Virus record (IMG/VR): IMGVR_UViG_3300027741_000027
Location: 72,022-136,021 of that record
DNA from: a virus
Length of the DNA stretch: 64,000 nucleotides
Direction: 5' to 3' (one strand)
The notes below the pieces were generated by a model. It was given only the letters and a program-made list of their open reading frames with translations. It searched no databases and was not told the origin of the DNA. The position numbers were made by a program, and so were the translations under genes. Positions 16,863 to 44,972 of this stretch are shown in pieces. Positions within the stretch are counted from its first letter, which is position 1, and each line of letters begins with the position of its first letter.

Positions 16863-16864
16863 AC

Positions 16865-17598: not shown

Positions 17599-17604
17599 AA
17601 GTTT

Positions 17605-17647
17605 ACCTTAGCACACTTGATTACTTTTTAAGTAAAGACTTAGTAAA
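17605..17647 (-). promoter_or_regulatory. Early promoter with box (18-nt class)
   Basis: TTTAC-N6-TTTAC-N18-TGC-TAAGGT. Confidence 0.75.
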
Positions 17648-17733
17648 GGAAGGGAGGACGCAGCGGGGGAGTATTGTCTTTTATATCCGAAGCCAATGGG
17701 GACGGGCATTGGCTGGAGTCCTCAATATATTAC

Positions 17734-18720
17734 TTAAGCGTTAAGGACGAGTTCAAAGCCCCTCTGCTTAAGTGCGTTGTCATCGAAGCTACGCGCCATT
17801 TGTGAGCCACGCTTAGTCATCTTGCGACCGTAATCGGCATACTCTGCGATTGCGTTAGCTGCGCACCACTTGCTGCCCGGTGCGTTGCCTGTAGTGTCGC
17901 CATTGACGCCTTCGCCCCTGTAGATCGCCATGATTGCATTCTTTGCAACTGAGCGATTAGTTACAGCACGATCACCCATGCTGCCCTCAACAGGGTAAAG
18001 CTCATCAAGAACAGAGCGCAGACGGCCCTCTGAAAAAGAAGTCAGAGCCAACTGATCGCCAAGATCCTTAAATTGCTTGTAATAGTCAATGGTAATACCC
18101 ATGACGTTACGAGCCTCATGGAGCTTTGCATTAATATTACCTGTGTGACGTACAGTGTAGGTGCGCTTACCCTGCTTGGCCCTGCTTACAGCCCAACCAA
18201 GAGTGTTTGCGCAAACAATACGAATTGGGCTAACAGACACAAGGCAAGCAGACTTACCATCGTGAGCATTAGCAATAAATACATATTGCCCAACATCGTC
18301 ACCTGCAACCTGAATGTAATCAGGCATCTTGCACAGTACCCATACCTTCTTACCTGCGTACAGGGAACCTGCGGTTTCGTACATCATATCTGTGCCAATA
18401 AGATTGTCCATGAAAGCAAATGCCTCATGGTTCTGAATTGGCTTGTAACGCTCTGTTACGACACCCATTACATCGTTGGTATCCTCACGGACGTTCATCC
18501 AAAGATTGTCTACCTTTGGGTACGTTGTGATGTTCTGACCACCGACGTTGGTAATAATTTCCTGATGAACAGGGCGCTGAATGATGTTCCAATCAAGACC
18601 TGAAAGCTCTAGTGCTTCCTTGATCGAACCGGGGTACTGATCTAGTACGTTACCAAGACCATGCCACGGCATTTCGCGTACCGAGAACATCTGATCTTTG
18701 TCTGTAATTCCGTGTGCCAT
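17734..18720 (-). CDS. DUF932 / TIGR03299 phage-plasmid family protein
   Basis: MFSVRE.PWHGLG, ETAGSL..GKKVW, NAHDG, TPIR/SPIRIVCANT, ...HT motifs. Confidence 0.9.
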   Translation of the reverse strand: MAHGITDKDQMFSVREMPWHGLGNVLDQYPGSIKEALELSGLDWNIIQRPVHQEIITNVGGQNITTYPKVDNLWMNVREDTNDVMGVVTERYKPIQNHEAFAFMDNLIGTDMMYETAGSLYAGKKVWVLCKMPDYIQVAGDDVGQYVFIANAHDGKSACLVSVSPIRIVCANTLGWAVSRAKQGKRTYTVRHTGNINAKLHEARNVMGITIDYYKQFKDLGDQLALTSFSEGRLRSVLDELYPVEGSMGDRAVTNRSVAKNAIMAIYRGEGVNGDTTGNAPGSKWCAANAIAEYADYGRKMTKRGSQMARSFDDNALKQRGFELVLNA

Positions 18721-18761
18721 TTGCTGCTCCTTTGTTTTGTTGTATTCAACTGCTGAACAGG

Positions 18762-18770
18762 AGTGTAGCA
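18762..18770 (-). promoter_or_regulatory. Extended -10 promoter of the DUF932 gene; inverted box pair at 18794-18809
   Basis: TGC-TACACT; TTTAC-N6-TTTAC on the + strand upstream. Confidence 0.6.
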
Positions 18771-18875
18771 GCTATTTCATCATTGAAGAGGATTTTACCA
18801 AGATTTTACCTTTCGATATGATTCTGGCTTGATTAATCTTATTAAAATAAGAAAAACAAATCTTTAATTAATACA

Positions 18876-19059: not shown

Positions 19060-19488
19060 ATGTTATTAGCATCATTTTCAAGCTTTATGGGGCAACCCAC
19101 CCCTCTCGTCATCTTTGAATTGATCGGCGCAAGCTTGGGATCTTATGCTCTTTTTTCTTATATTAAAAATATCAATGTAAAATCACAATTAACGGCAAAA
19201 GATACAATAATTGAAACCAATCAACAAACTATAGTATCATATGGAGAAAGATTAGATTCTTTGGAAGCTCAAGTCAAAGCCCTTGAGAAAGAAAACAATT
19301 TTCTTAAGACCGAATTAACTAATTGGGAAGAAAAATATAGGTCGCTTGAGAGCTTTGCCGCTCCGCAACTAGGCGAAAAATTAATTAAGATGTTCGAACA
19401 ACAAGAGGATTTGTTAAGTAAAATGGTGTGTGCATTAGAAGGAATCCAAGCTAAAATTGATTCCTTTGATGAACAGCAGAGTGAGTAA
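19060..19488 (+). CDS. Membrane protein with N-terminal TM helix and coiled coil
   Basis: Hydrophobic residues ~14-33 then heptad-rich region. Confidence 0.7.
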   Translation: MLLASFSSFMGQPTPLVIFELIGASLGSYALFSYIKNINVKSQLTAKDTIIETNQQTIVSYGERLDSLEAQVKALEKENNFLKTELTNWEEKYRSLESFAAPQLGEKLIKMFEQQEDLLSKMVCALEGIQAKIDSFDEQQSE

Positions 19489-22400
19489 TGTGGGATTTCT
19501 CTTTTCAAAAAGAATCTACGGATAATCATGATTGGACACCGGGGCGACTCGGTGCCGGATATATCCACGCTAGAACGAATACCCCAGATTCGTTCAACCT
19601 GCTTGACTATAGCATACGCACATGGTCAGTAGGCCCAGACTATACAGATGACATTGACCGCGAGTACCAGCGTATTCGCGCTACTGATCTTGTCGTATTT
19701 AAGTTTTATATTACACCTACAGGTGGTATCCATGATCGTGGCGAAGGTTTTAAGAATAGAACCGGCAAGTCAGATCGTTCTGTAATTGCCTTTCTTCATC
19801 GTAAAGATAATCGTTTTTATGATGGACGCAATGATATTAAGACAAGCGCAACAGAAGATAGCGCACTGCACTTTAATCATTATACAGGTGAGCCTTGCTA
19901 CTGCGGATTTGGTCAGACGCATGGCTTAGAGAAGGAAGCCAATCTAAAGTATAAAGATATTAAACGAGGCGAGCTTCCAGAAAGCTATTATATGAATTTG
20001 GAAGGCGAAAATGGCAGGGTTTTTCGAGATTATGTTGTTGCTTTAGCCGAAGGCGGAGAGGTTGTAGGCGCTGGAGGTAATACAGAAACAATAGAGGCGA
20101 TTCCCGGAATCAAAAAAGTTATTCCGTGGATTGTCGGTCAAATGAAAAAAGGAACTCTTAATTTTGAATCGGGTCGTCGCAGCACCAGACCCGGTTTTGA
20201 GCGCGTTGTTTCTGAAAGAAACTTTGAATTTTGGTCGCCGGGACGCCTTGAAAATATTGCTGATTTATTTAATGCCGAAGGATCTCCTTATCAAAACAAA
20301 CTTGTAGAGTGTCCAGAGTGCAAGGGAAAAGGAGAAAAGTGGAATACGGAGGTTGAAGCTCATGTAATGTGCGATAGATGCATGGCACACAAAACTGCGC
20401 CAAGTAATCAAAAAGAAAACTTGATGGAGCTACCTCCAGACGAAATAGAAACAAGAGCTAAACGCCATCGAAATTGGGTTAGAGAGCGCGAAGCAGAAGC
20501 TATGCGCAAAGCCGATGTTAAAAATCAAGAGAGGGTTTACGAATTTACTGATCCAGACCATAAAGGCTGGTTTGTTACAAGACTTAATCCTGATGCTGGT
20601 GAGGCTAAACGAGTTGGCATTGAGCAAGGCAATTGTTTTCAACAGGAGGCGCAGGGCTATCAAAGGTCAGTTGCAGAGGGCGATTTAACTGTTTATGTAT
20701 TAAGGGATCCTAAAGGGTTGGGTCATGCGCTATGGGCTTATGACCGCGATGGCAAAATCGCGGTTATGGAAGATTCTAGTAAACTTTATAACAAACGAGG
20801 CAAAGGTTGGGTAGGTTATGAAGTAAATAATCAATGGATTCGAAATATGATTAATGAAGCCAGTGATGCCTTAGGTATGCAAAAAAGATACCACAAAGAT
20901 AATTATGATGTTCAACTGCCCGATGTTTTAACAGTAGATCAATTTTTAATTCAATTTTCAAACGATGATTCGGATGCATATAAACAATTAGTTGCAAAAT
21001 CCGCAGATGAACAAGATATTGATGCGGATATGGTTTCGGAAGTTATAAAAGGTCGCGTTGATTGGAGGTCCATTGTCGGAGATTTGTTTAACGGGCCAAC
21101 TACCGGAAACCTATCTGATGAACAAATCCCTTTTAATGATTTTATAAAAATTATGGATGGTGATGATCGTCTTATCTTTGCTTTGGATCAATTTGTTCAA
21201 GAAGCAGATAGAAGAATATCAGACCCAGAAGTAGAAGCCAATCAGCGCAATCAAGATCATGTAAATGATTATAAAGAGTGGAAAAAAATTCACACTCATC
21301 CATATACTGGCGAATATACACACCCAGAAACATGGGCAAATACCGCTTGGCACAAAAATGACTATGAAGAATTTCGTGAAAATTTCAGTGACAGTCCGTG
21401 GGCTTTTTCACTTCCTGATTGGGACACATTTATTTCTGAGTGGGGCGGCAAACTTCCAGCAAGTTTAAATCCTGCTTATCGAAAAGGCAAACCTGTAATT
21501 GAAACCAGTGCTTGCAAAAAATGTGGTGGGTCTGGTCGTCTTATTACTCCAAATGGTTATGTCACTTGTGATAAATGTTGGGGTGATGGTGATGAACGAA
21601 ATAAAGTTGTATTTCCTGATCCAGAATCAGATGCCGCCAAGTGTCAGTCCTGTGCAGGATCAGGCGTCGATCAAAGCAAAGTTCAACACCTTAAACAACA
21701 GGTTGAGCAATTAAAAGCAGATGGTGTTCATGACCGTCTTATTGTTGAATTTGAAAGAACTTTAGGAAGAAAAGATTTACAAAATACTGATTTGCGTTGC
21801 GGGGCTTGTAATGGCACGGGCAAAAACAAGCCTGCCGCAAAGCTCATGGAAGAGGGTTCAGGGCAACTTAAATTTGGTAAAAAGAAACAAGACAATTACA
21901 TTGTTCACTTTGATTCTATTACAGGCAAGCCATGCACCTGTGGATTTGGTGCATATAGGAATACCAATGAAGATGGCGAGCGATTCTTTAAAGAAGCATC
22001 AGGTTACAAGTTTAAAGAAATTACAAAGAGTCCGCCTTCATTTCTTCAAAATGAAGAGGGTCAAGCCCTCATTGAGTATTTAACATCTCTTATTAAGGGT
22101 GTTGGCGAGAATCCTCAACCCATACTAGAGGGAGCTAAAACTCTTGTTCCGTGGATTGTTAAACAGTTCAAAGAAGGCAATCTTACTTACAATCCAAACG
22201 AAGATCGATCATATTATACGGGCATTGAAAGAGTGTATCCGGGTGGAAATACACCAATTGATTTTGATGAGTTAGAGTTCATAGTTAATTATGTTAATGC
22301 AAGCGAAGGCCCATATAGACAAAATGTTGATTGGATGTCTTTTGATTTTATTGACCTAATACGTCAGGGGATGAGGCATCATGAGTGGGTTAAAGAAAAA

Positions 22401-25400
22401 GAAAAAGACGCTAAGTTTTTAGCAAATCAAAACACCGTTTATACATTTGATGACTCTAACCTTGAATGGGTTGGTTGGACTGTTGCTAAATTAGAAGACG
22501 AAAATGAAGTTGAGCAAGAAGGAATAAGGCAGGGCAATTGTATTAAAGACGAAGAAAGCGGTTATTTAGAAGCTTTTGATAAAGGTTATCTTGATCTTTA
22601 TGTATTGAGAGATACATTTGGAGGCAGTCATGCAATTTGGGGATATAACACAGACGATGGTTCTGTGGCATTTATGGAGGATTCTTCTAAAAGATATGCA
22701 GAAGAGAGAAGGCGAACTGACTTTCCTTACTACAAGGTAAATGTCCCATTTATTCGTGAAATGATTTCTACTGCTAATCAAGCACTTGGTTTAGATGATG
22801 ACTACGATAATGGTAGTTATAATTATAATAGAGGTGAAACTGGTGAAGATTGTTACGATAGAAATAGGGAGCATTGGAGGCCAGAGCGGGAAGAAGAGGA
22901 AGAGGAGGAAGAGGAGGAAAAGGAAGCACTTGAAATTCAATTGTCAGATGTAACAAGTTTTGCAGAATACGAAGCTCAATATGGCGAGGACAATAATTGT
23001 TGGGAGCTTGCAGCAAGGGAGGCACAAGATGAAGGTCTTATTATTGGCGATGATACACAGATTTATCCCGGCTCAATTCATTGGGATGATATAGCCTATG
23101 AATACTTTAATACTCCAAGAGACTTTCAAACCAACTTAGATTTGTTGAACAAATGGGCCGCAGTTTTTCATAATCAATTTCAGATTGGAGATTTTTACGA
23201 AGAGTGTCAAAGGTATTTAGAAACAGCAGATCTTGATGAAGAAGACGATGCAGAAATACAGGCTTACCAAGAGTGGGTTAAATTACACACAAATCCGCTT
23301 ACGGGTAAATTTCAAGATCCTAGAGGAATTTCGCCAAGTAATTTAGATAGATTAAGAAGGCAAGAAGAAGAAAACGTTTGGGGATTCTCTGTTCCAAGCG
23401 ATGAAGATTTAGCATCATTTAACGGCATTCTTCCTGCGGGCTTAAATCCACAAAACAGAAGAGGCGAGCCATTACATACAAAAATTCAATGCCTGTCTTG
23501 CGGTGGAGCTGGAGGAGATCCTAATACTGGCGCAACGTGTCGGGCCTGTAATGGAACGGGTATGATGCAGGCTAGAGCCACAATGCCCGATTGGGAAACA
23601 AGATTGAAAAATCGGGGCGAGAACGGTGGAATTCCAAACCCCGCAGCAATGATTCATGAAGAGCCATCAGGTCAATTGTTTATGGCAAAGAAAAAGTGGG
23701 ACATGACCCCTCTTAGTTTTACCGACCAATTGAAACTTCACTTATCAACGATTGAAGCTAAGGTTTCTCATGATCTTAGCTGGGTAGCTGGTGGTCGCGG
23801 TCGCGGCCTTATGCTCAATAGCGGTAAACTTATCACTTGGCCAGTGAACAAGAAAGGCGAGCCGCAGCATCCTGATATGTATGAATACCTTACAGGACAC
23901 AAATTGCCTGAGACTCATTCCGTACATGATTTTACAGAAGGCATCCCATTTGATATTAATGAAGATGGATCGGTCAATTGGTTCTCTAAGGATACATCGC
24001 CTGATCTTATTGCTGATATCTCCAAGATTGATTATCGACTTAAAACTTCCGCAATTGATCCTTGTTGGAGAACGGGGGAATGCGCAGCCTTTGCTCTTGC
24101 AGCACACGATTTAACAGGTTGGCCAATCTTTAAAATTGACGAAAGACCAAACGGTGGGGCGTGGCACTTTATGGTTCAGACACCAAACGGCGACTTTTTA
24201 GATGGCGATGGAATTAGAAGAGGAGAGGAAATTTTAGCTGAGCATAGCGAGGCTGCCGAAGAACTTGCAAAGACCCATGACATCTATCCTTCCAGCAGAG
24301 AAGAAGTAGTGGCTTATGGTTCAAATGTAATAGAGAAGGCAAAAGAAGCCACACCTATTATTCAAAACATGTTGAAATCTTCTAAAACTTATGAAGGGTT
24401 TGATGTTCATTTCCACCCTTACACGGGCGAGCCATGCACTTGCGCTTATGGTCAATCACCAAACAACAGACGCACAGCATCACAGGCTGTTCGTAAAGTA
24501 AAGAATCAAGATCAGAAGCATATGCGCAGTGAAAAAGGTCAAGCCATTCTTGATTATCTACATAAACTTATTTCAGGTCACGGTCTGAGTGAGCAAGGTG
24601 AATTCGGGCGAGGTCCGGCTCCCGGTCTTGAAGGCATGGTGCCATGGATTGTAAAACAAATCAAAACAGAAGACATTAAACCGTTTACTTATGACGATGG
24701 AGAAGTGTATGGTCTTGGTCGCTTTTCAACTATGGAATTTAGCTCTGTTCAACAGGCGAAGATGGCACTTGCTGGTAAACATGAATCATTGATTAGTGTT
24801 CAGCAGAATTACGAATCAGATTATTGGAAGACAAGGTTAGAAAGCTTTGGGTATCAAGTAGATGATACCTACGGAGCAGTTGATAACCCTGACATTGATG
24901 CTGTAGTAATTAACTGCGATATTGTTGGTCCTAATGACCTTATTGATCTTTTAAAGAAGATTCCTGAGGGTACGCCCACTTGGATTGGTGGATCAGATGC
25001 AATATTGGAACAAATCGGTGCAACGGAAGACGCAGAAGAATATTTGAAGGACTTACTCAAAAGAAACAAAATTAATTCTCGCAAAATTTACATCACGACG
25101 ACAATGTATAGAGCAGTGCAAGCAATAGACGACACTGTTAGAGAAGAAAACCCAGACCTATCTAATTTTGAATTACCAGATAAGTATTACGCCAAGATCA
25201 AACCAGAGGATTGGGCAAATTGGTTTAATGCATCCAACGCACCTGCTCGTCGCAGCAGGACAGAAAAGGAAGTCAGGGCCGCATTTAATAGGTCAGAGAA
25301 ATACATTCAGTATCGCATCGAACGGGGAAACAAAACAATTAATGGTGATATTAATTCTCCTATGTATAACGATGATTTGTTAGGACTTATGGCCGATCAA

Positions 25401-27002
25401 CTAAAAGTTGATGAACGCGATCTTCGTGAGAATATGATGACTACATATAGAGAAATGCAGGCCGATAATGCCATAGATACAATCGATGGTACCGTGCCTG
25501 AAGAGAACATGAAGGACTTTCTTAATAGATTAACTAAAAAGTTTGAGATTAATCTCAATGATATGTCAGTGGCGCAAGTTTCAGACGCTGTACATAGGCA
25601 TAAAAGATACCTTTATGAATTACAAACTATTGAAGGCCTTAAGAAACAATTTGCTGATAAATTAAACGACCCAGAAAGCGTTGTTTATAGAGTCCAAGAT
25701 CCATTCTTTAAAGGTTGGACCGTTCATCAATTAAAATCCATGGAAGACGCCGGACTTGAAAGTGAAGTATTAGGTCATTGCATTGGCAGCGATGAACAAA
25801 AGTATGCACAGGGCATTGAAAATGATGTTATTGCTGCTTATTCTTTAAGAGATGAAAACGGCATTCCTAAGTTTACATGGCATTATAACCCTGATGGATC
25901 ATTTGCTCACGCTCAGGGTAAGTCTAAAGACTCCTACGCTAGATTTAGAGATATTGTAACAGAATTTAATGAGGCAATGGGACTTGATGATGCAAATGGT
26001 GGCGAAGGCTCGGAAGATAATTCTTGGTTCCAAGATTTTGAAGACGAAACATTACACACACTTCAAATGCCAGACCCAGAATCAATAGAAGAATATATGG
26101 CGCAAATAGACCATCTTGAAGAGGCGGCTGAGGAGTATGCAGATCAACTTGGGGAAACATTAGCAGACGATTGCGATATTGAACGCGGAGACCCAGAATG
26201 GAATCTTATTGCAGACGAATTTTTTGAAGAGTCGCATATAAATGTTGGAACGTATCAACTTATTAATGCTTTGATGAGTGAATTTGCGCCACCTTATCAT
26301 TTGCGAGATTTTGTCACGGCAGCAAATAAAATATTTGATAGAAACAAAGAAGGATTTATCAGAGATGGGGAATTGATGGGACTTGAAGAAAGATCAGATG
26401 ATGATTTCTTTGACACCTATCCAATATGTAGATTTTATGATACATGGCGCAGAATGCACACCAATCCAAAAACAAATAAGGTGGAAAAACCAATTACTCT
26501 TTGGCGAGAAGAAGCATACATGCAAAGATTTAAACCAGATGAAGCGCCAGAAATTTCATATCAAGAATTACCATACAACAGAATTGGCATTCACGATGAA
26601 GATATCGCTCCGGACATGCCAAATTATTGGGATGCAAGCGGCGGCGTAAGAATGATGCCTGCAAGTATGAACCCTCAATACGCGCCTAACGCTGTAACAT
26701 GCGCAAAATGCAATGGTCGTGGTTATATAGGTTCATTAAATTGTGATAAGTGTAATACCAGAGGTTGGTACATTGAAGAAAACCCAGTCGAAAGAGAGCC
26801 GGGTGCAGAATGTCAAAATTGTGGTGGCTCAGGCAGAATTCAAATTACTGATGACCGTGGTGTTGTAACGGAAAACTGCGCAAATTGTAATGGTACAGGA
26901 AAAACAGCATCTTTAACAATAAAAGAAAAGGCTGCCGCTTGGGACCAGCCACTAACTAAATTAACCTATGCACAGGCTAAATATATAAATGGAAAACTTT
27001 AA
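19488..27002 (+). CDS. Giant polyvalent protein: three PcfJ-like modules with DnaJ-type Zn fingers plus a papain-like domain
   Basis: 2504 aa; three repeats of GW.V..L...E...G.C...Y...LRD..G; six CxxC..CxxC fingers mostly of CxxCxGxG type; GECAAFA...WHF...LDGDG. Confidence 0.85.
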   Translation: MWDFSFQKESTDNHDWTPGRLGAGYIHARTNTPDSFNLLDYSIRTWSVGPDYTDDIDREYQRIRATDLVVFKFYITPTGGIHDRGEGFKNRTGKSDRSVIAFLHRKDNRFYDGRNDIKTSATEDSALHFNHYTGEPCYCGFGQTHGLEKEANLKYKDIKRGELPESYYMNLEGENGRVFRDYVVALAEGGEVVGAGGNTETIEAIPGIKKVIPWIVGQMKKGTLNFESGRRSTRPGFERVVSERNFEFWSPGRLENIADLFNAEGSPYQNKLVECPECKGKGEKWNTEVEAHVMCDRCMAHKTAPSNQKENLMELPPDEIETRAKRHRNWVREREAEAMRKADVKNQERVYEFTDPDHKGWFVTRLNPDAGEAKRVGIEQGNCFQQEAQGYQRSVAEGDLTVYVLRDPKGLGHALWAYDRDGKIAVMEDSSKLYNKRGKGWVGYEVNNQWIRNMINEASDALGMQKRYHKDNYDVQLPDVLTVDQFLIQFSNDDSDAYKQLVAKSADEQDIDADMVSEVIKGRVDWRSIVGDLFNGPTTGNLSDEQIPFNDFIKIMDGDDRLIFALDQFVQEADRRISDPEVEANQRNQDHVNDYKEWKKIHTHPYTGEYTHPETWANTAWHKNDYEEFRENFSDSPWAFSLPDWDTFISEWGGKLPASLNPAYRKGKPVIETSACKKCGGSGRLITPNGYVTCDKCWGDGDERNKVVFPDPESDAAKCQSCAGSGVDQSKVQHLKQQVEQLKADGVHDRLIVEFERTLGRKDLQNTDLRCGACNGTGKNKPAAKLMEEGSGQLKFGKKKQDNYIVHFDSITGKPCTCGFGAYRNTNEDGERFFKEASGYKFKEITKSPPSFLQNEEGQALIEYLTSLIKGVGENPQPILEGAKTLVPWIVKQFKEGNLTYNPNEDRSYYTGIERVYPGGNTPIDFDELEFIVNYVNASEGPYRQNVDWMSFDFIDLIRQGMRHHEWVKEKEKDAKFLANQNTVYTFDDSNLEWVGWTVAKLEDENEVEQEGIRQGNCIKDEESGYLEAFDKGYLDLYVLRDTFGGSHAIWGYNTDDGSVAFMEDSSKRYAEERRRTDFPYYKVNVPFIREMISTANQALGLDDDYDNGSYNYNRGETGEDCYDRNREHWRPEREEEEEEEEEEKEALEIQLSDVTSFAEYEAQYGEDNNCWELAAREAQDEGLIIGDDTQIYPGSIHWDDIAYEYFNTPRDFQTNLDLLNKWAAVFHNQFQIGDFYEECQRYLETADLDEEDDAEIQAYQEWVKLHTNPLTGKFQDPRGISPSNLDRLRRQEEENVWGFSVPSDEDLASFNGILPAGLNPQNRRGEPLHTKIQCLSCGGAGGDPNTGATCRACNGTGMMQARATMPDWETRLKNRGENGGIPNPAAMIHEEPSGQLFMAKKKWDMTPLSFTDQLKLHLSTIEAKVSHDLSWVAGGRGRGLMLNSGKLITWPVNKKGEPQHPDMYEYLTGHKLPETHSVHDFTEGIPFDINEDGSVNWFSKDTSPDLIADISKIDYRLKTSAIDPCWRTGECAAFALAAHDLTGWPIFKIDERPNGGAWHFMVQTPNGDFLDGDGIRRGEEILAEHSEAAEELAKTHDIYPSSREEVVAYGSNVIEKAKEATPIIQNMLKSSKTYEGFDVHFHPYTGEPCTCAYGQSPNNRRTASQAVRKVKNQDQKHMRSEKGQAILDYLHKLISGHGLSEQGEFGRGPAPGLEGMVPWIVKQIKTEDIKPFTYDDGEVYGLGRFSTMEFSSVQQAKMALAGKHESLISVQQNYESDYWKTRLESFGYQVDDTYGAVDNPDIDAVVINCDIVGPNDLIDLLKKIPEGTPTWIGGSDAILEQIGATEDAEEYLKDLLKRNKINSRKIYITTTMYRAVQAIDDTVREENPDLSNFELPDKYYAKIKPEDWANWFNASNAPARRSRTEKEVRAAFNRSEKYIQYRIERGNKTINGDINSPMYNDDLLGLMADQLKVDERDLRENMMTTYREMQADNAIDTIDGTVPEENMKDFLNRLTKKFEINLNDMSVAQVSDAVHRHKRYLYELQTIEGLKKQFADKLNDPESVVYRVQDPFFKGWTVHQLKSMEDAGLESEVLGHCIGSDEQKYAQGIENDVIAAYSLRDENGIPKFTWHYNPDGSFAHAQGKSKDSYARFRDIVTEFNEAMGLDDANGGEGSEDNSWFQDFEDETLHTLQMPDPESIEEYMAQIDHLEEAAEEYADQLGETLADDCDIERGDPEWNLIADEFFEESHINVGTYQLINALMSEFAPPYHLRDFVTAANKIFDRNKEGFIRDGELMGLEERSDDDFFDTYPICRFYDTWRRMHTNPKTNKVEKPITLWREEAYMQRFKPDEAPEISYQELPYNRIGIHDEDIAPDMPNYWDASGGVRMMPASMNPQYAPNAVTCAKCNGRGYIGSLNCDKCNTRGWYIEENPVEREPGAECQNCGGSGRIQITDDRGVVTENCANCNGTGKTASLTIKEKAAAWDQPLTKLTYAQAKYINGKL

Positions 27003-27131
27003 ACTATCAGAGGTTTTGTTTTGGGGATCATTACCCTTTAGGGTTTTGTTCTCTGTAATTAGGGACGAATACGAATTTTGGACTGTAGTCAAGGGTTATA
27101 CTCTTGACAAGCCTTTAAAGAACTCTAAGTT

Positions 27132-28631
27132 CTAAGTTCCAAACGGTCTTGGTTTCGTATCAGGATCGCGGCGCTCTGTTCCCTCATCAGGTTTATTTTT
27201 TGTTTTTGGTGGAGCAATATCAGTCATATCTAAAAAACATCTGACATGCGTAGGTGTTTTTGGACCACCTGACAATGGGAAGATTGCTTCAACGTATGCA
27301 AGTGCAGGATTTGCGTTACGTTCTTGAACATAAACCTCGCCAACTGATCCCGCTGGCACCTCTACAAACTTACCTACGCCGATAGCATTACTTGGCCCTT
27401 CAGTTTCACCAATAACAGATTTAGCTAGTGTAATTGTGTCACCGCTTTTATAATTATACCAACCGGGTGTGGCAGCCATCCTATGACCATTATAAGTATT
27501 TGACCAAATGCTACCAAATGGATTTCTTTCACTTGGTTGGCGAGCATGAGGAACAGACACAGTACCGGGAGGCGATGCTTGACCGTAAGGTGATTCACCG
27601 GGCCTAGTATACTGCTGCTGTTGACGTTGCTGCTCTTTAAGTTGTTCTAATGGCGGAGTTTGTATCTTTTTCCGTGGCTCAAATCCTAAGAATCTTTCTT
27701 CTTCTGGAGTTAATTGAGTCTCAGGACGATCATATTGTTGAGGCGCAAGTGGGCCAAGCCTTTGCTCAAGCAGTTCATCAGGAGACACAGCACCAACATC
27801 TTCTGGTTTAAATGGTGTAAGCTGTCGAATACCACGCGCACCCTCAGGAACAGAGGGAACGATACCACCGGGTGTGCCACCGGGTCCAACTTGGCCGGGT
27901 GGTAGAGCAAATGGGCTAGGCTCACCAACAGGGCCAACTGGTGCCTGTGGTGGAAGCTCAGTAACCATTGCCTCTTCAACCTGTTGCACTGGTAGCATCT
28001 TAGATAAAAAGTAAAGTGCTAGAACGTGAGAGCATGGGCGACCTTCATAAATCTTCCATTGACGAGTACGTTGCCAAGCAAACTGCTGCCACTTGCATTC
28101 ACAATGCCATCCTGTAATGACGGGCGAAGCAGGGTCTTGGCGCATGATGGTTGATTCATAAGTTCCATGATCGCCAATAACAGTACCAACAACATGATCT
28201 TGGTCATTAATTATAACTGTTACATGGCCTGTATTGACTAGTCGCTTTGCTTTCTCAACAAGGTCGTTCCAGTTATCTTGGCGCTCAATAACGCGCTCGC
28301 GCTGTCTAGCATTAAGTCCTTCATCTTCATCAGCAAAACCTCTGCTTGGTTGCTCTTGCTCAGTTCTTTCTTTATCAAGAATTTCAGCAGGGTCGCCTTC
28401 AGCAAAGTGAAAGGTTGCCCGCTTGTATCCAAAACCCTCTAGTTGGGCAGCTACAATCTTTTCAGCAAGGATCTTATCAAGGGTGCTTCCCTCTTTAGCC
28501 ATGACTACAGCATCGCCGGGTTTACCCTCCCACCATTCAACAATTGAATTGCCGATCTTCTGAGTGCGAGCAGGTAGGGGTTTAACAGAGGCAATAACTT
28601 CGCGGATGTATGAAACGTCTTTATTCATCAC
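27132..28631 (-). CDS. SWIM Zn-finger protein with Pro/Gln-rich linker and C-terminal SH3-like domain
   Basis: WHCECKW...PCSHVLAL (CxC...CxH). Confidence 0.75.
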   Translation of the reverse strand: MMNKDVSYIREVIASVKPLPARTQKIGNSIVEWWEGKPGDAVVMAKEGSTLDKILAEKIVAAQLEGFGYKRATFHFAEGDPAEILDKERTEQEQPSRGFADEDEGLNARQRERVIERQDNWNDLVEKAKRLVNTGHVTVIINDQDHVVGTVIGDHGTYESTIMRQDPASPVITGWHCECKWQQFAWQRTRQWKIYEGRPCSHVLALYFLSKMLPVQQVEEAMVTELPPQAPVGPVGEPSPFALPPGQVGPGGTPGGIVPSVPEGARGIRQLTPFKPEDVGAVSPDELLEQRLGPLAPQQYDRPETQLTPEEERFLGFEPRKKIQTPPLEQLKEQQRQQQQYTRPGESPYGQASPPGTVSVPHARQPSERNPFGSIWSNTYNGHRMAATPGWYNYKSGDTITLAKSVIGETEGPSNAIGVGKFVEVPAGSVGEVYVQERNANPALAYVEAIFPLSGGPKTPTHVRCFLDMTDIAPPKTKNKPDEGTERRDPDTKPRPFGT

Positions 28632-29209
28632 TGATTAACTGTTCGTTTCCTGTAGTAAGTCAAGCCCTTGCTTTTAAGCAGGCTACGATCCCTTGTAATT
28701 GTTTTATTTAGCAAACGTGCAATATTCCTCGGTTTATAATTAATAACCTCTACAGACACGTTTACGTTGCCCCAACGAGTTGGTTCGTTTCTTGAGTAAT
28801 CGTGGTTGTGAATATGACCATGCACATGAATCTTTAGCTCATCCTCGGACTTAAACAGCTTAGGATAATGGTCAAAGCTAATCTCATACTGCCTGTATTC
28901 CATTTTAAATGGTTTAACAACTTCAAAGCCTAGCTTGTCGTAATCATATTTACGTTTATCATGATTGCCAAGAATAATATATTTTTTGCCAGTGAGTTTT
29001 GGAGCGACCTCTGACTTGAAATAATGAAAGTATTCATCGCCTCCCATCATCAGATCGCCCAAGTGAAGAATTACATCGTTCTCTTTTACCTTTTTGCGCC
29101 AATGAGCAATCATTAGTTCTTCATGATACTTGGGCCTGTCGCAATACTTAACAATGTTTTTATGACCGAAGTGAGTATCGGATATTACATAAAAAGGAAA
29201 TTTAATCAA
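28628..29209 (-). CDS. Calcineurin-like metallophosphoesterase
   Basis: SDTHFGH, HLGD, GNHD, HGHIH motifs. Confidence 0.9.
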   Translation of the reverse strand: MIKFPFYVISDTHFGHKNIVKYCDRPKYHEELMIAHWRKKVKENDVILHLGDLMMGGDEYFHYFKSEVAPKLTGKKYIILGNHDKRKYDYDKLGFEVVKPFKMEYRQYEISFDHYPKLFKSEDELKIHVHGHIHNHDYSRNEPTRWGNVNVSVEVINYKPRNIARLLNKTITRDRSLLKSKGLTYYRKRTVNQ

Positions 29210-31874
29210 TGTTATATTGTTTCATGATGCCATGAATCTGATCAATTAGGCCGCGCTCTTCAATCATCTTATACGAAATGTTAGATGGGGAGAAGTCGCC
29301 CTTGCCCTGTTCCATGTCATTCTTTCTTCTTCTATGAAGTTGATTATAGTATTGAACTGCTTTGAATGGTTCGTAGCGAATAAGTCCCTCCATCTTATCA
29401 GCATTCTCAAGAGCAATCGTATGAACTTCATTCATTTCTTTAATTACATTGCGAGAGCGTTCCTTCTCTGGAGGAACAATCCAAGTGTCAGTTGACAGAT
29501 CATATGCTGACCTAAGACCGGGCTTGTAAAGATCGGTTTTCTCAAAACCCTCTGCAACTACATAGCATTGTAGTGGGTGACCGGTACCCGGAACAGGAAT
29601 GTTATCGCACTCGTCCATCATAATAGCAATCATCTCTGCCCTTGACCACTCAGGAAACTTATCGGCATTAACAAACAGTGAAACATCAAAGTCTGATGCG
29701 GGTGAATACTGATACGTTGTAAGGCTACCTGTAACAATTAGCTCAAGCCAATCTTCCATGTGAGTATAACCATTGTGATCTAATGCTTCAATAATAAAAT
29801 TAGTTACCCAGCTATTGATCTCTGGGCGCAAAACGGGGTTAGGGGCATAAGCGTCATCCCAAACCTTTGGATCAAGCTGATCGCTAACTTCATCAAGGAT
29901 GTTAGCTTTCCTTCTAAACCATTTAAGGAAGCGCTTACCAAATCGACCTAATTGATTATCATAATTTTCAGGATCGCTCCATGGAACAATTTTGTCTGCT
30001 TTTGGACCGAGGGTGCTGTTTTCCCATTGCTCTGTAGCAATTTCGTTCCATACATTGCGTATTTGTTCTCCTTCTGTTTCTCCGGGAACCTCAATGCCTT
30101 CACGCTCTCGCATTTCAATACGCCTTTGCACATCTCTCTCTTGATCTTCCGTTGGAGCAATAGGACCAAATAACTTATTTTGATCAAGATTGGGTTTAGC
30201 TGGATCAGGTTCATTAGGATCAATATAGTTGTGACCCAGAAGCTGATCTGCATAACGAAACTCAGGAACTCTTGCCCATTGCTGAGCTTCTGAAAGGTAG
30301 CTGTTAGGATCGTAATAACGAGCTTCAAACTCTGGATAAAGTTGTTCTTTAATATAATCATTTACTTCAGCTACAAAATCATCGTAATACGATCTGTCTC
30401 GATACATCATGCGGTCAGGAGTAAATTCATCTGCCTTTTTTGCAAGCTCGGGTAATTTATCAATTGAACCAGTTGTTGATCCCCATTGCCTTAAACTTTT
30501 AAATGCATAGTCAATAATTTCTTCCCAATTATCACGACGAATGAATTCTCTATCGTATTTAGTGCAATAGCCTTCGCCATCGGGATCATGCAAGTATCCA
30601 TGTTCTTGATCATCTGGGAAATAATCTTCCCAATTGCGGGTAGGTGTAACTTTTTCATGTTGATATTCAGAGTTGCCGTAATCAATGTTCTCTTCGTCAA
30701 AGTCTTGTGGATTAATCCAAATTTGTAACTCTTGCACGGTTTTTGGCGCTGGAATCCAAATTTCTTGAACGGTGCGCTCATAACCCGGAGGATTATCCAT
30801 GCTAATCAACCAGTCGCCAACCATCTCACGATACTTAGGCACAAGCATTTTATTTTCTTTGCCTTGAATCTGCACAACATTGCCACCATCAGGGGTAACT
30901 CTTGTCAAATGATTAGCGAGAGTCTCATCTGATAACTCATCCCTACTACGACCTTCAAGAAAAGCGCGAACGACTTGCACTAGTGGTTTATACTCAAGGT
31001 TATTGGCTTCGCAAAGGTTAGTTAGAAATTTTCCAAATTCCTCATTGCTAACGCCAGTGTCTTTATAAGCTTTAATTGCCGCCCAATCATGACCAACAAA
31101 ATTAATTAATTTAATGTCTCGTTTAAGTTCTTTAAGAACTGCCTCATTACGTTTGGCTGTTTCTAAAGCATTAGGATCATGCCTGTCGGGTTCGTCAGTA
31201 TATTCGTCATCTTCCCATTGATAATCATATCCTACTTCGACAGGATCAATTTCAATGGTTCCATGAGGTTGATTCTTAGGATCACGCAAAGAATAAATAA
31301 GCGTGTGGCCATTTTGAATTTGACCGCCATATCCGCCAACGCAATGACCCATAGCTTCACCCTCTTGTTTAGCCTCGTTAGCGTTAGTGATTTGTCGAAT
31401 AGTCCAACCGTCATCAAGCTTGGCTACAACGGTGCCACCCTCTGTTTGAGCCTCATCCATCTTTGATGCAAGCTCGGCATCCCATTCTGCCATTTTAGAA
31501 ATAACATCTTCATAAGTAAGTTGCATAATATCCACGCCACGACGAGTGGGTGAATTAGAGGCAAACCAGTCAGCTAAATGAGGAAGAAAAGCAGGATAAG
31601 CATTAAGCTCCTCGGGCTGGATTCGGCCCTTCTTTAATTCTCTCCAAATCCACGGAGCTAAAGGGTCAAGTTTTTCATTACCTTCAACCTTCTTTTCAAG
31701 CCATTGAAATGCCATTTGCCCTTCTTCGCTTTTGAAGAATTTATCTTCGCGTTCACGAAGCCAATCGAGCTTTGCCCCTGCTTCTCTTTGAAGAGGTTGC
31801 GGAGTATATGGATCTTGGAACTTTCCAAATCCACAACGGCATGGTTCGCCGTTTGCGTTAAGATGAGGTTTCAT
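29202..31874 (-). CDS. PcfJ-like module fused to a Pol-beta-fold nucleotidyltransferase
   Basis: DGWTIRQI...EGEAMGHCVGGY...YSLRDPKN.PH.TIE; C-terminal GSLTTYQY...SDFDVSL. Confidence 0.85.
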   Translation of the reverse strand: MKPHLNANGEPCRCGFGKFQDPYTPQPLQREAGAKLDWLREREDKFFKSEEGQMAFQWLEKKVEGNEKLDPLAPWIWRELKKGRIQPEELNAYPAFLPHLADWFASNSPTRRGVDIMQLTYEDVISKMAEWDAELASKMDEAQTEGGTVVAKLDDGWTIRQITNANEAKQEGEAMGHCVGGYGGQIQNGHTLIYSLRDPKNQPHGTIEIDPVEVGYDYQWEDDEYTDEPDRHDPNALETAKRNEAVLKELKRDIKLINFVGHDWAAIKAYKDTGVSNEEFGKFLTNLCEANNLEYKPLVQVVRAFLEGRSRDELSDETLANHLTRVTPDGGNVVQIQGKENKMLVPKYREMVGDWLISMDNPPGYERTVQEIWIPAPKTVQELQIWINPQDFDEENIDYGNSEYQHEKVTPTRNWEDYFPDDQEHGYLHDPDGEGYCTKYDREFIRRDNWEEIIDYAFKSLRQWGSTTGSIDKLPELAKKADEFTPDRMMYRDRSYYDDFVAEVNDYIKEQLYPEFEARYYDPNSYLSEAQQWARVPEFRYADQLLGHNYIDPNEPDPAKPNLDQNKLFGPIAPTEDQERDVQRRIEMREREGIEVPGETEGEQIRNVWNEIATEQWENSTLGPKADKIVPWSDPENYDNQLGRFGKRFLKWFRRKANILDEVSDQLDPKVWDDAYAPNPVLRPEINSWVTNFIIEALDHNGYTHMEDWLELIVTGSLTTYQYSPASDFDVSLFVNADKFPEWSRAEMIAIMMDECDNIPVPGTGHPLQCYVVAEGFEKTDLYKPGLRSAYDLSTDTWIVPPEKERSRNVIKEMNEVHTIALENADKMEGLIRYEPFKAVQYYNQLHRRRKNDMEQGKGDFSPSNISYKMIEERGLIDQIHGIMKQYNID

Positions 31875-33810
31875 TAGCTAACTTAGTTTTCTTTCCTTCA
31901 GCGTCAAGGAGGTTAATCCTCTTAACACTAAACTCTGGGTATTGATAATACCATAATGTCAAAATATGATTTACTGTGTAAGGCATAGTGGTCATGGTTG
32001 TAATGTTTACTGTGCCGCCCGGTTCATACATACCTTCCACAATGCCTGCGGGTGTAAACTTGCCGGGGATATCTGATGTGCGCTGGCCGGGGTGACCGAC
32101 TGTAACCGTGTCTGCTGGGATATCGTAAATAAACGGAATAGGATCTGTAAGAACATCCTTAGGCTCTCTGGCCGCCATATGAACCCATGTCTTGCCATCT
32201 ACATTAACCCAACCACGACGACGAAGCACAGTGGCCTCCCAATCATGCGCAATGTGAGTCTCTAAGTAAGGGTGATGCCTTTTAACCTGATGCTCTAATG
32301 CAGAAAACACTCCACGGTTTCTAACTGCTGAATAGATCATCCTTAGCTTTTCATCCCTGACAGCAGCATAGCCAACGGGTGAGCCATGAAGATACGCTAC
32401 ATAAAACATATCGTCATCAGTGTAGCCAAACGCTCTAGTATATTTATCAAATGGGCCGTCAACCCTTGCAGCTTCTGTCATGCCATAGACTGGCATCGTA
32501 GTTGGCTGCTGCTCAGTGAAGTGTGGTGGGTTAGTTTGATCCATGTCAAGCTCTGGAAATTTACCATCCTCAAGAACCTCGCCATCATCGCCATGCTCTT
32601 CCCTGCGATGCTCGCTAAACAAATGCCAATCGGGAAAAATCTCATCGCAGATAGGACACTTATGAACACCAAGCTCAGTCTCTGAATTGATTGGCGTATC
32701 GTCCTCTGCTTCGCCCTCTACAGGATTCATTGGTGGTCTTTTATCACTAGGTATACCAAGATCCTCCTGCTCCATTGTCTCATTGCGCTGAATAAGGTTA
32801 TTTGAAGAACCGTAAAGTCTAATGCCCTGATCGCCTGCCCACTCAAATAACTGGGGTAAGACGGTTGTGTAAGCAGGATTGATACGAGCCTTCTTGCCAA
32901 TGATTTCAATGGTGCCATAAAGGGGTTTACCCTCGGCCTCTAAAGCAAGGACTGCATGAGAGGTTTTACCCATGTATAAATGATTATTAGCCCAAACGTA
33001 GTTAAGCACTACAGGGCGCTTGGCTGGCTCTAAGCTCTTGCTTACGACTTGACCATGAATATCCTTAAGACCATTCCACTTCCAACCAACCTGATCAGAG
33101 TAATCTTTAAAGATACGAGCCATTGACTTGAGGTTTACATTAGAGTAAACATCCCATGTTGCTTCATTATTAGATACGGTAACTGAACCGCTAGCCATTG
33201 GGCCAGAATGATCATTGCCGATATTTAAATGACGGGCAAGATCATCATGGTTAAACGTATCTTCTGGAGAGATTTCTAATGATCCATTAGCATAAAAGAA
33301 GTTGTATGTACGAACGGGATCATCAGAACCATCAATGGCTGGTTCATCATGCCAATACTGCTGATCGTTGTCGCTTTGCCTCTGTGGTTCTTCACCGGGG
33401 AACGCATCGCTTGTCAAGCTGTCGTTAGAGACCTTTAAAGCGGTCTCTAAGTTATTAAAAATAAGATTAGCTCTCTTACTAAAGATCTGAGTTCTTTTAT
33501 TTAAAACGGGCTTATATGGCTTGTAACCATCATTGCTGGCATAAACAGGATTCCCTGAATGATTGCCAGTGATATCAAGAATATATGACTCATCTGGACT
33601 AAGCCAAGCAAAGTGTCCATTACGTTTACCAATAAAGCCGCCAAGCCTCTGTTGAAGCCAAGCGGCAGTAACATAACATTGGCCGCCGCCCACTGACGCA
33701 TTCTTAATCCATCGTGGGTAGCGAGTATCATCCGCCCAAGCCTGCGCAGCCGCAACCTTAAAGGCATCAATCTCACCCGGCGTAATTAATTTTGGATTCC
33801 AGTCCATCAC
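31858..33810 (-). CDS. Multidomain protein: papain/transglutaminase-like, C2H2 Zn finger, GNAT-like
   Basis: GQCYVTA...GHFAW...ILDIT; CPICDEIF...H...H; YVAYLHGSPVGYA...RNRGVFSAL. Confidence 0.75.
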   Translation of the reverse strand: MMDWNPKLITPGEIDAFKVAAAQAWADDTRYPRWIKNASVGGGQCYVTAAWLQQRLGGFIGKRNGHFAWLSPDESYILDITGNHSGNPVYASNDGYKPYKPVLNKRTQIFSKRANLIFNNLETALKVSNDSLTSDAFPGEEPQRQSDNDQQYWHDEPAIDGSDDPVRTYNFFYANGSLEISPEDTFNHDDLARHLNIGNDHSGPMASGSVTVSNNEATWDVYSNVNLKSMARIFKDYSDQVGWKWNGLKDIHGQVVSKSLEPAKRPVVLNYVWANNHLYMGKTSHAVLALEAEGKPLYGTIEIIGKKARINPAYTTVLPQLFEWAGDQGIRLYGSSNNLIQRNETMEQEDLGIPSDKRPPMNPVEGEAEDDTPINSETELGVHKCPICDEIFPDWHLFSEHRREEHGDDGEVLEDGKFPELDMDQTNPPHFTEQQPTTMPVYGMTEAARVDGPFDKYTRAFGYTDDDMFYVAYLHGSPVGYAAVRDEKLRMIYSAVRNRGVFSALEHQVKRHHPYLETHIAHDWEATVLRRRGWVNVDGKTWVHMAAREPKDVLTDPIPFIYDIPADTVTVGHPGQRTSDIPGKFTPAGIVEGMYEPGGTVNITTMTTMPYTVNHILTLWYYQYPEFSVKRINLLDAEGKKTKLANETSS

Positions 33811-34007
33811 ATATTATCTATGCGTTTTTGATGCGTGGCTAGTGCCATCTCTAGTTCTTGCTCATCACAAACGGGGCATAAAAACACAGGAAGGCCTTTA
33901 TTATTAAATACCTCGCTTTGAGTTACCTCTGTAGGAAGGCGTACAAGCTCGCGTGGATCACGCGCTTCACGCTTACGACTAGACTTACAACCATTACATG
34001 TTGGCAC
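33807..34007 (-). CDS. Small Zn-binding protein (66 aa)
   Basis: AGGAGG then GTG-PTCNGC...CPVCD; shorter than the ORF-track call. Confidence 0.6.
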   Translation of the reverse strand: MPTCNGCKSSRKREARDPRELVRLPTEVTQSEVFNNKGLPVFLCPVCDEQELEMALATHQKRIDNM

Positions 34008-34230
34008 GACTTGCCTCCTCACAGCCGACTCCACAAGTGAAGCCTTTACCAAACTTTCTAGCCGGTCTAAGACATTTCGTGCAGCGATTCTCACCATTAG
34101 TGCAGCGAGCATACTTAGAATAAGGCGCTGCATAAACTTTGCCCCCGCAGGGACAATCAACTTCGTTTTTAATTGGTTTATCATTATGAATAACCTTAGT
34201 GATTCTTTGTCCTCTACCGTCCTGACTCAT
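33994..34230 (-). CDS. Cys-rich Zn-ribbon protein
   Basis: CPCGG...C....RCTKC...CGVGC; start overlaps upstream gene end. Confidence 0.6.
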   Translation of the reverse strand: MSQDGRGQRITKVIHNDKPIKNEVDCPCGGKVYAAPYSKYARCTNGENRCTKCLRPARKFGKGFTCGVGCEEASRANM

Positions 34231-34735
34231 CTTCATCCTTATTTTCTTTTTGATTATACAATTCTTCTAATTGCTCTGCAACGTATTCATCAAAAATGCT
34301 GCTGGCAACACTAATAATTTCAGCCTCAATCATATTCATCTTTTCAATATCAAAATACTCACCGACAACGGAAACCTTATAATAATCTTTTTCGTCGTCA
34401 GTTTTCTTGTTGAGAGAAAACATCATAAAGGCTTCGCCGGATAAAGCTAGGTCTGTTGCTTTGCGAATTGCATCAATATATTCCTCTGCTGTGCTACCGC
34501 CGTCATGAAGAACTTCAAAGTGCGATTCAAAAACCCACTTGTCTCTTTCTCCAGCATAGTTTGGATGACCTTCGTCCCATGTAATAAAAATCATTGGGAA
34601 TCCATCGTCTACTTTGCGATCCTTTACCCAGCCGGTAGAACCTGCTGATACACCACGATAAAAATCGGTATCAGCAAACTCGCCCTTCAACTGAACATAG
34701 GAGTCGATTAAGATTTTATTTTTTGAATCAGACAT
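34214..34735 (-). CDS. Hypothetical protein with SH3-like N-terminus
   Basis: DSYVQLK...GSTGWVK.RK.DDGFPMIFITWD. Confidence 0.7.
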   Translation of the reverse strand: MSDSKNKILIDSYVQLKGEFADTDFYRGVSAGSTGWVKDRKVDDGFPMIFITWDEGHPNYAGERDKWVFESHFEVLHDGGSTAEEYIDAIRKATDLALSGEAFMMFSLNKKTDDEKDYYKVSVVGEYFDIEKMNMIEAEIISVASSIFDEYVAEQLEELYNQKENKDEDESGR

Positions 34736-44027: not shown

Positions 44028-44972
44028 TTATAGGAAAAGTGAGTCGTCGCCAATTTTGTCGTAATCAGTGAATTCTTTAGCTGATGCCTCCTTGTGCATT
44101 TCTTCTTTTACTTCTACAAACATTGCACGACGCTGTTCTTCAACGCGAGCAAGCCACACCTTCTCATACTTCTCACGAACATCATCATCGGCAGCCGCTG
44201 TCTTAGAGCGGATCCAATTTGAAGCGAGAGAACGGACTGTACCTGAGTCCGCAAGTGTCTCATTGTCAAGTCCAGCGGTAAAGGCCTCTGGGCCTTCATC
44301 CATAAGTTTTGCATAATCGGTTGAATTGGCTTCAACAATCATTTCGTTAATTGACTGATCTAGCCAAGTTGCTTCGCGGCCACCAGTAGGTCCACCCTGC
44401 TCAACAGCTTGCATGCTGAAAGGAGCAGGAGCTTCGTAAGCTGAAGTATGGCCTTCTTCAAGAGCGCGAATAACATCGCCGATCTCTTCCATCTCATAAT
44501 TAGCTTGAGTGATAACATTAGCAACGCGAGCAAGGTCAGTATCAGAAAGACCTGAGTCAATAAATAGCGAAGCCTCAACCTTAATTGCATCAAGGTCACG
44601 AACGCGATCTTCAATTGTCTTAGCATCAAATACTGAAACGGAAGATTCTACCTTCTTTTCAAGCTCTGCAATTTCATCCTTCTCTTCTTCTTCCTCTTCT
44701 TTAGAAAAAGTAAGCTTGCTAACAGGAAGTGAAGAAATACGACCATTCTCAAAACGAATAGTTACTTCATCTTCCCAAAGGCCCTTAACGCGGCCAAGAA
44801 CCTTGCCCTTAAGTCCGTTAGGAGTTACAACGTGAGTAGCGCCCTCTGCTGATGCAAGGTGGGCAGCTTCTTCTTCTATGAACATATCCTCTGAAACAGA
44901 GGCGACAATTTTTCCATCTTGATAAGTGTAAACACTACCATTTTTGAAAATATAAGTGGGTTCTGAATTCAT
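44028..44972 (-). CDS. Acidic head-morphogenesis-region protein
   Basis: 314 aa; SH3-like segment GLKGKVLGR...EVTIRFENG; between terminase and core gene. Confidence 0.75.
   Translation of the reverse strand: MNSEPTYIFKNGSVYTYQDGKIVASVSEDMFIEEEAAHLASAEGATHVVTPNGLKGKVLGRVKGLWEDEVTIRFENGRISSLPVSKLTFSKEEEEEEKDEIAELEKKVESSVSVFDAKTIEDRVRDLDAIKVEASLFIDSGLSDTDLARVANVITQANYEMEEIGDVIRALEEGHTSAYEAPAPFSMQAVEQGGPTGGREATWLDQSINEMIVEANSTDYAKLMDEGPEAFTAGLDNETLADSGTVRSLASNWIRSKTAAADDDVREKYEKVWLARVEEQRRAMFVEVKEEMHKEASAKEFTDYDKIGDDSLFL

Follow-up and report, generated by a model that had tools for sequence, protein, structure and literature searches.

The IMG/VR record IMGVR_UViG_3300027741_000027 is a single contig of 136,021 base pairs (bp) from an uncultured virus, a lake-type phage with a GC content of ~42%, and its right-hand 64 kilobases (kb) form the stretch of DNA considered here (referred to as the window). 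Two genes in the window encode proteins of 2504 and 890 amino acids (aa) that are built around PcfJ-like modules. Each module is preceded by a His/Cys leader element, termed the tag, and a short distance further on by a four-residue motif, termed the joint, after which the fold of the module begins. This account describes the tag and the joint, their occurrence in other phages and the recurrence of the joint motif in the head proteins of the same phage, and considers whether the joint may be a site of proteolytic processing.

Tagged modules in two phage proteins

The 2504-aa protein consists largely of three tandem modules with a repeat unit of ~570–830 residues, and alignments of the repeats start at the tag. 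Each module opens with the tag and linker; the joint comes next and leads into a helical N-domain, which is followed by the PcfJ-like core and, at the end, by DnaJ-type fingers of the CxxCxGxG form. Ten CxxCxGxG motifs are present in the protein. The 890-aa protein has a single PcfJ-like module, in which a GNAT-like core is interrupted by a helical insert. Several effector-type domains are thus present on each polypeptide: three modules with zinc fingers in the larger protein, and a module with a nucleotidyltransferase-like domain in the smaller. Scores against the Pfam family PF14284 are 41.7 bits for the 890-aa protein and 30.1 bits for the 2504-aa protein (gathering cut-off 25), and when the six-frame translated genome is searched with a profile, four PcfJ-like modules are recovered and no more, one in the 890-aa protein and the others in the 2504-aa protein. 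No peptidase match to either protein was found in Pfam or PHROGs, although a remote peptidase relative may be present. The positions of these and other features are collected in table 1.

A six-frame scan of the 136,021-bp genome with the pattern G-[EKDQ]-P-C-x-C-[GA]-[FYW]-G returns exactly four copies, which are the four tags; a degenerate DNA pattern for the tag recovers the same four copies, and the reversed pattern used as a control recovers none. All four PcfJ-like modules of the genome carry a tag. An earlier sequence-only reading of this DNA had placed a tag ahead of every such module, followed within 8–16 residues by a [KR]-x-A junction; its four tags are reproduced exactly in coordinates and translation, they are the sole four in the genome, and the joint Ala lies 9, 16, 9 and 15 residues beyond the final Gly of tags 1–4, with KEAN, KEAS, RTAS and REAG as the joints. 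All four joints fit [KR]-[TE]-A-[SGN]. The intervening linkers, of 6–13 residues, have no sequence in common among the four copies, whereas the joint is kept. A further K-T-A-S follows directly after the last zinc finger of the 2504-aa protein; it is not kept in more distant orthologues and may be a chance occurrence.

Two additional features of these proteins can be recorded. In modules 1 and 2, E-E-[GP]-S-G-Q-[LM] followed by basic residues stands downstream of the zinc fingers (21800–21900 and 23560–23700, plus strand), and this motif is seen again ahead of a conserved C-terminal tail in orthologues. Within residues 235–890 of the 890-aa protein (29202–31173, minus strand), the C-terminal domain (residues ~657–886) matches PHROG 36119, has a motif of the G-S...D-x-D type and gives a weak fold match to aminoglycoside nucleotidyltransferases.

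Table 1. Features of the tagged genes and their surroundings. Positions are those of the window unless given as genome positions.
Feature	Position	Strand	Remarks
Promoter-type box TTTAC-N6-TTTAC	18794..18809	+	ahead of the operon of the 2504-aa gene
2504-aa protein	19488..27002	+	three tandem modules, residues 127–714, 806–1371 and 1626–2452
Tag 1 (His/Cys leader element)	19866..19913	+	
Joint 1, K-E-A-N	19932..19943	+	
PcfJ-like core, module 1	20418..20807	+	
DnaJ-type CxxCxGxG zinc fingers	21513..21821	+	end of module 1
Tag 2	21903..21950	+	
Joint 2, K-E-A-S	21990..22001	+	
PcfJ-like core, module 2	22320..22715	+	
DnaJ-type zinc fingers	23490..23561	+	end of module 2
Tag 3	24405..24452	+	
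Joint 3, R-T-A-S	24471..24482	+	
PcfJ-like core, module 3	25527..25961	+	Pfam PF14284 match
DnaJ-type zinc fingers	26700..26900	+	end of module 3; PF00684, 57.1 bits (cut-off 32.7)
Fourth K-T-A-S of the 2504-aa protein	26901..26912	+	30 residues from the C-terminus
Metallophosphoesterase gene	28628–29209		next to the 890-aa gene
890-aa protein	29202..31874	minus	leader, PcfJ-like module, C-terminal nucleotidyltransferase-like domain
PcfJ-like core, first half, 890-aa protein	31173..31541	minus	holds the invariant pair H177, C178
Joint 4, R-E-A-G	31776..31787	minus	
Tag 4	31824..31874	minus	extreme N-terminus of the 890-aa protein
650-aa protein	31858..33810	minus	17-nucleotide overlap with the start of the 890-aa gene
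Portal	37962–40235	minus	
314-aa head-cluster protein	44028..44972	minus	K-E-A-S at 44082–44093, 21 residues before the acidic Leu-Phe tail
Large terminase	45010–47061		
848-aa protease protein	genome 40844–43390	minus	outside the window
1129-aa protein	genome 44654–48043	minus	outside the window

Occurrence among PcfJ homologues

A profile built from the four modules matches 2,305 proteins at an E-value of 0.001 or below among 1.84 billion cluster representatives. The roughly 200 homologues that were retrieved contain 134 distinct (non-redundant) tags, with a consensus made up of His, x-[NH]-x-x-T-G-x-P and C-x-C-x-[WFY]-G in that order. The tag lies within the first 30 residues of the protein in 48 of the 134 cases (36%) and is internal in the other 86; for 91 of 95 tags in the retrieved homologues, a PcfJ core follows 190–590 residues downstream. 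Across the family the linker between tag and joint measures 4–19 residues. The strict form of the joint, [KR]-[TE]-A-[SGANDT], stands behind 63 of the 134 tags, and the remainder mostly have Ala followed by Ser, Gly or Asp. A conserved helix comes behind the joint, reading K-L-[DE]-W-L-R or Q-A-V-R-K, and in many homologues the joint itself reads V-K-[TE]-A-S.

Some homologues lack the tag, and these proteins start 2–15 residues ahead of the joint; tagless internal modules of other polyproteins likewise start with V-K-T-A-D. Because tagless homologues start just ahead of the joint, the joint can be regarded as the boundary of the module and the tag as an optional addition before it. In other PcfJ relatives a different N-terminal element, of the form His...CxxC, is found at the place of the tag.

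In cellular genomes from GTDB, 70 of 71 PcfJ-like modules have neither tag nor joint. The sole module with both belongs to a Solirubrobacter provirus of this phage clade, which matches a second phage genome, a relative of 152 kb and 64% GC; in that genome the tag occurs once, on a PcfJ polyprotein. PcfJ homologues and homologues of the phage's protease come from metagenomic contigs of matching lengths, probably the same contigs, and these shared contigs, together with the provirus exception, tie the leader to a phage clade that has this protease. Searches of IMG/VR with two DNA patterns for the tag alone returned 1 and 23 stretches, among which there is one real tag, ahead of a PcfJ core; the remaining stretches were rejected as out-of-frame chance matches. 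Narrow tag patterns had no match in the GTDB genomes scanned. No homologue of the tagged N-terminal part was found in the cultured phages searched, and the plasmids searched gave three weak matches, all to the PcfJ core alone. The leader is an undescribed and widespread element that is specific to a phage-borne subfamily of PcfJ proteins.

A shared motif in the head module

The head genes of this phage lie partly outside the window, as does the gene for the major head protein. The first ~270 residues of an 848-aa protein match a head maturation protease family; the protein also matches PHROG 18299 and, weakly, the head maturation proteases of jumbo phages. Portal and protease are 37–40% identical to their counterparts in Bxz1-type (cluster C) mycobacteriophages and related Gordonia phages.

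The motif [KR]-[TE]-A-[SGN] occurs 17 times in the proteome of the phage, where 7.8 copies are expected. Three adjacent head-module proteins, none of which was used in defining the joint motif, account for seven of these copies (0.67 expected): four in the 848-aa protease protein (0.34 expected), two in its 340-aa neighbour (0.09 expected) and one in its 1129-aa neighbour. The excess is also found in relatives. Homologues of the protease protein (120 sequences) have a mean of 2.9 copies, against 0.24 expected, an enrichment of about 12-fold; the copies keep their positions near residue 25, in mid-protein and ~40 residues from the end, and in 49% of cases Val stands directly before the motif. 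No common helix lies behind the motif in the protease protein. The 152-kb relative has 22 copies, with 11.1 expected, and these are concentrated in its protease and head-cluster proteins. In mycobacteriophage MoMoMixon, [KR]-T-A-G is found close to the C-terminal ends of gp97 and gp98. The V-K-[TE]-A-S of many PcfJ joints consists of the same five residues as are found in the protease protein, and joint and protease-protein motif are the same motif in every genome seen. Cleavage at the joint is a reasonable hypothesis, because its residues match a motif that is strongly over-represented in the protein with the prohead protease and in the proteins next to it.

In this genome, only the protease protein, the 1129-aa protein and a 314-aa head-cluster protein end in an acidic C-terminal tail with Leu-Phe, and 109 of the 120 protease homologues end likewise. 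Each of the three proteins has a copy of [KR]-[TE]-A-[SG] 20–46 residues upstream of the tail. By its likeness to the C-terminal propeptide that is lost from SPN3US gp245, the tail looks like a C-terminal capsid anchor that would be released by cutting.

Several side observations concern the same head proteins. The acidic 340-aa protein is encoded between the 1129-aa and protease genes (genome 43598–44620, minus strand; 27,401–28,423 bases before the start of the window) and contains three small Cys knuckles, each adjoining a joint motif; one knuckle is tag-like, with G-x-P-C-x-C-G followed by S-T-A-S. Mini-knuckles of the form C-x-x-C-x-G-x-G-C-x-x-C, which resemble those of the 340-aa protein, are found in an 896-aa protein with a peptidoglycan-hydrolase-like region (41169–43859, minus strand) and in a 272-aa protein (40305–41123, minus strand). 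Three protease homologues (P0205, P0295 and P0297) are longer than the others by 300–400 residues and have Pfam matches to Hint/intein and LAGLIDADG families, which suggests that an intein is inserted in their head protease gene.

Predicted structure of the leader and the module

The 890-aa protein was modelled with AlphaFold2 at full length, with 42 sequences, and as residues 1–380, with 61 sequences (mean predicted local distance difference test score, pLDDT, 86.6); the two runs agree. Values of 60, 48 and 40 are obtained along residues 1–30, with the linker below 50, and the module beyond scores 84–97. The first helix comprises residues 34–41 and starts one residue past the joint R30-E31-A32-G33, such that the joint marks the exact switch from disordered linker to predicted fold. 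The tag is not docked onto the module in any of the models. A fourth zinc ligand was sought by comparing 100 tagged with 76 tagless modules: no Cys or His column tracks the presence of the tag, the largest difference in frequency being 0.21, and an invariant His-Cys pair of the core is equally kept in both sets. The models support the view that the tag is a separable, flexible N-terminal extension that is not part of the fold. The sequence-only reading had proposed a short, removable N-terminal peptide on the 890-aa protein and had named folding of the tag into the following domain as a finding that would speak against it; the models show no such folding, and the extension is separable, low in pLDDT and optional among homologues.

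The His-x7-9-Cys-x-Cys-x-aromatic-Gly element is probably a small metal-binding knuckle. The His lies upstream of CxC and no CxH follows downstream, and neither tagged protein has a SWIM match, so the SWIM signature is absent.

The module core (residues 148–372 of the 890-aa protein, with the helical insert) aligns with HAT1 in VIA-align at Z scores of up to 8.4, with a root mean square deviation of 3.5–5.1 over 105–112 residues, and nearly all of the top 50 matches are GNAT proteins. A GNAT-like fold is predicted from these middling Z scores, which give nothing firm on activity. With the full-length 890-residue model as query, Foldseek returned no PDB match under an E-value of 0.09. The invariant His-Cys pair had raised the idea that the PcfJ core is a self-processing cysteine peptidase; this was rejected, the fold match being GNAT-like. 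No literature on the function of PcfJ or on its presence in virions was found, and the GNAT-like fold, together with the invariant pair, would offer a first handle on PcfJ function.

Gene neighbourhood and promoter boxes

The neighbours of the tagged genes are phosphoesterase and nucleotidyltransferase genes and not head genes. The 650-aa protein encoded next to the 890-aa gene has neither tag nor joint motif and stands outside the tagged set; it has a single C2H2-type finger, whose Pfam match (E-value 0.004) falls short of the cut-off. Five tRNAs are encoded in the window.

Boxes of the form TTTRC-N6-TTTAC number 17 in the window, against 0.47 expected by shuffling. All lie within 4859–18809, in a cluster of small genes and DUF932; the one that precedes the 2504-aa operon is the sole plus-strand copy near the tagged genes, and the other 16 are at 4859–17647. 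There is no TTTAC box in the structural region of the window, and a scan of 26800–41300 for sigma-70 promoters and terminators performed no better than on shuffled sequence. Because a box precedes the 2504-aa operon and all boxes are confined to 4859–18809, the two tagged genes appear to belong to different transcription classes.

Possible explanations: processing, capping or packaging

The explanation that we favour, with tentative confidence, is that the joint is cut by the phage's own prohead protease and that the leader is a cleavable propeptide. The joint would be the recognition site of the prohead maturation protease, a domain of the gp21/gp245 type at the N-terminus of the 848-aa protein, and the scissile bond would lie either between [TE] and A, in the register of T4 gp21, or between A and [SG]. 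The T4 enzyme cuts between Glu and Ala in [LI]-x-E-A. The leader would be cut off the 890-aa protein as a propeptide and the three modules of the 2504-aa protein would be cut apart at their joints, releasing modules that comprise a GNAT-like core with the invariant His-Cys pair; cutting by this protease would require the PcfJ proteins to be inside the prohead. The joint counts in favour of cleavage in that tag and linker are unpacked, tagless homologues start near the joint, and linkers have diverged while the joint is kept. A precedent is provided by the prohead proteases of T4 and SPN3US, which trim propeptides from internal and ejection proteins.

A number of observations weigh against processing at the joint. 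The residue before the joint in this genome is Glu, Phe, Arg or Gln and not the Val typical of the sites in the protease protein. The residues past it (Ser, Gly, Asp or Asn, then K-L-[DE]-W) fit a classic helix capping box, which accounts for much of the conservation of the joint without cutting. Tagless homologues keep K-T-A a few residues from their start, where cutting removes almost nothing, and fewer than half of the tags (those 63 of 134) have the strict motif behind them. Conserved copies of the motif are absent from the capsid protein, its N-terminus included, and 199 of 200 PcfJ proteins are without the acidic Leu-Phe tail (one has it). The box ahead of the 2504-aa gene is of the type found in the small-gene cluster and not among structural genes. 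Finally, the co-occurrence of leader and protease may reflect nothing beyond the shared ancestry of a single phage clade.

Some of these points lead to an explanation without any cutting, which is only slightly less probable. The joint would be an N-terminal helix cap, with Ala at N', Ser, Gly, Asp or Asn at the N-cap, an acidic residue at N3 and Trp at N4, and the tag would be the attached metal-binding accessory of the module, which might bind a substrate, nucleic acid or a partner; likeness to the protease motif would be coincidental. The residues from P1' to P5' fit the capping box, K-T-A is kept in tagless proteins that start 3–15 residues upstream, and the promoter class of the 2504-aa gene is non-structural. 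The tag is coupled to PcfJ modules alone, and the His...CxxC element at its place in other relatives suggests a role linked to the module. A helix cap, however, leaves unexplained the Lys/Arg-Thr/Glu before the Ala and the frequent Val, and the same five-residue string shows a 12-fold enrichment in the protease protein without a common helix behind it. An accessory of the module also sits poorly with a tag that is undocked in the AlphaFold models and with which no residue of the module co-varies.

The sequence-only reading had gone further than processing and had taken the tag as a metal-binding packaging signal, similar to the capsid-targeting sequence (CTS) of T4, which would bring the proteins into the prohead and be removed at the joint before the modules are injected. 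Its separable leader stands and its cleavage is plausible, but the packaging signal is unsupported: the tag goes with PcfJ modules alone (4 of 4 in this genome, 1 of 1 in the second and 91 of 95 in the retrieved homologues). We regard this fuller model as unlikely. Each point for cutting by the prohead protease counts for it too, because the protease is expected to act in proheads; the leader would then be the sole conserved extra element on the PcfJ proteins, 36% of tags are at the extreme N-terminus, as is the T4 CTS, and the 340-aa head-module protein has three Cys knuckles abutting joint motifs, one of them tag-like. A CTS, however, is portable across unrelated cargo, whereas the tag is absent from all other proteins of two genomes, and the head-cluster proteins use a different terminal element, the acidic Leu-Phe tail. 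After cutting of the 2504-aa protein, tags 2 and 3 would end up as C-terminal parts of the upstream fragments; many family members are tagless yet keep the joint, and the 2504-aa gene belongs to another promoter class than the structural genes. A similarly improbable variant holds that the tag is a new capsid-targeting propeptide, dependent on metal, by which GNAT-like PcfJ effectors would be loaded into the prohead in a Bxz1-related phage clade. It would work beside the Leu-Phe anchor of the protease and core proteins, and both would be released by one protease at [VLI]-[KR]-[TE]-A-[SG]. Less probable still is a leader that acts in the infected cell, whether as a cis-inhibitory or folding propeptide cut by another protease or as a tether that holds the module to DNA or to a partner, for example the SWIM-like protein of 499 aa encoded nearby. 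Such a role is consistent with the promoter class of the 2504-aa gene, with phosphoesterase and nucleotidyltransferase neighbours in place of head genes, and with the flexible, tethered leader, but no candidate for a second protease was found among the proteins examined, and it is left unexplained why the joint is identical with the protease-protein motif.

If the joint is indeed cut by the prohead protease, it would provide a readable cleavage code for a clade of large, mostly uncultured Bxz1-related phages, by which mature virion proteins and delivered effectors could be predicted from sequence alone. Should the joint prove to be just a helix cap, the tag would be an ordinary N-terminal extension specific to one subfamily.

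Relation to known phage systems

The PF14284 family is one of the closest points of reference: its core is common to all four modules and is the only part that the Pfam model covers, while 70 of the 71 relatives in cellular genomes are without the leader, joint and helical N-domain of this phage-borne subfamily.

In bacteriophage T4, the CTS of internal proteins is removed by the prohead protease gp21. The 890-aa protein is similar to the T4 internal proteins (IPI–III and Alt) in having a short N-terminal leader followed by a short protease-type motif, and the phage's protease belongs to the same broad gp21-like group. The T4 CTS differs in having no Cys/His pattern and in being common to unrelated cargo, whereas the tag is confined to one module family and is not shared by unrelated packaged proteins. 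The position also differs, since two-thirds of the tags are internal; the tag of the 890-aa protein is N-terminal and the three tags of the 2504-aa protein are not. The T4 motif is [LI]-x-E, as opposed to [KR]-[TE]-A-[SG] here.

Polyvalent proteins of phages and conjugative elements are very long, multi-module, effector-like proteins; for those of portal–terminase phages, delivery together with the DNA and processing into units have been proposed (Iyer et al. 2017, PMC5512222). That paper contains no occurrence of PcfJ, of the tag or of DnaJ-type fingers. Polyvalent proteins have a built-in zincin-like peptidase as the processing agent, whereas none is detected in the tagged proteins by Pfam or PHROGs, and they combine many modules where the 2504-aa protein repeats one.

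In the giant phages SPN3US, phiKZ and 201phi2-1, prohead proteases (gp245/gp175) trim propeptides from many head and ejection proteins, with one short motif as the site (PMC10052503, PMC7411985). These proteases cut after Glu in A/S/G-x-E, whereas the recurrent motif here has Thr more often than Glu. SPN3US gp245 cuts itself, losing a C-terminal propeptide, and favours Val in P4 and Ser in P1' (PMC10052503); Val also stands before the motif in about half of its copies in the protease homologues, and both Val and Ser are found in the V-K-[TE]-A-S of many PcfJ homologues.

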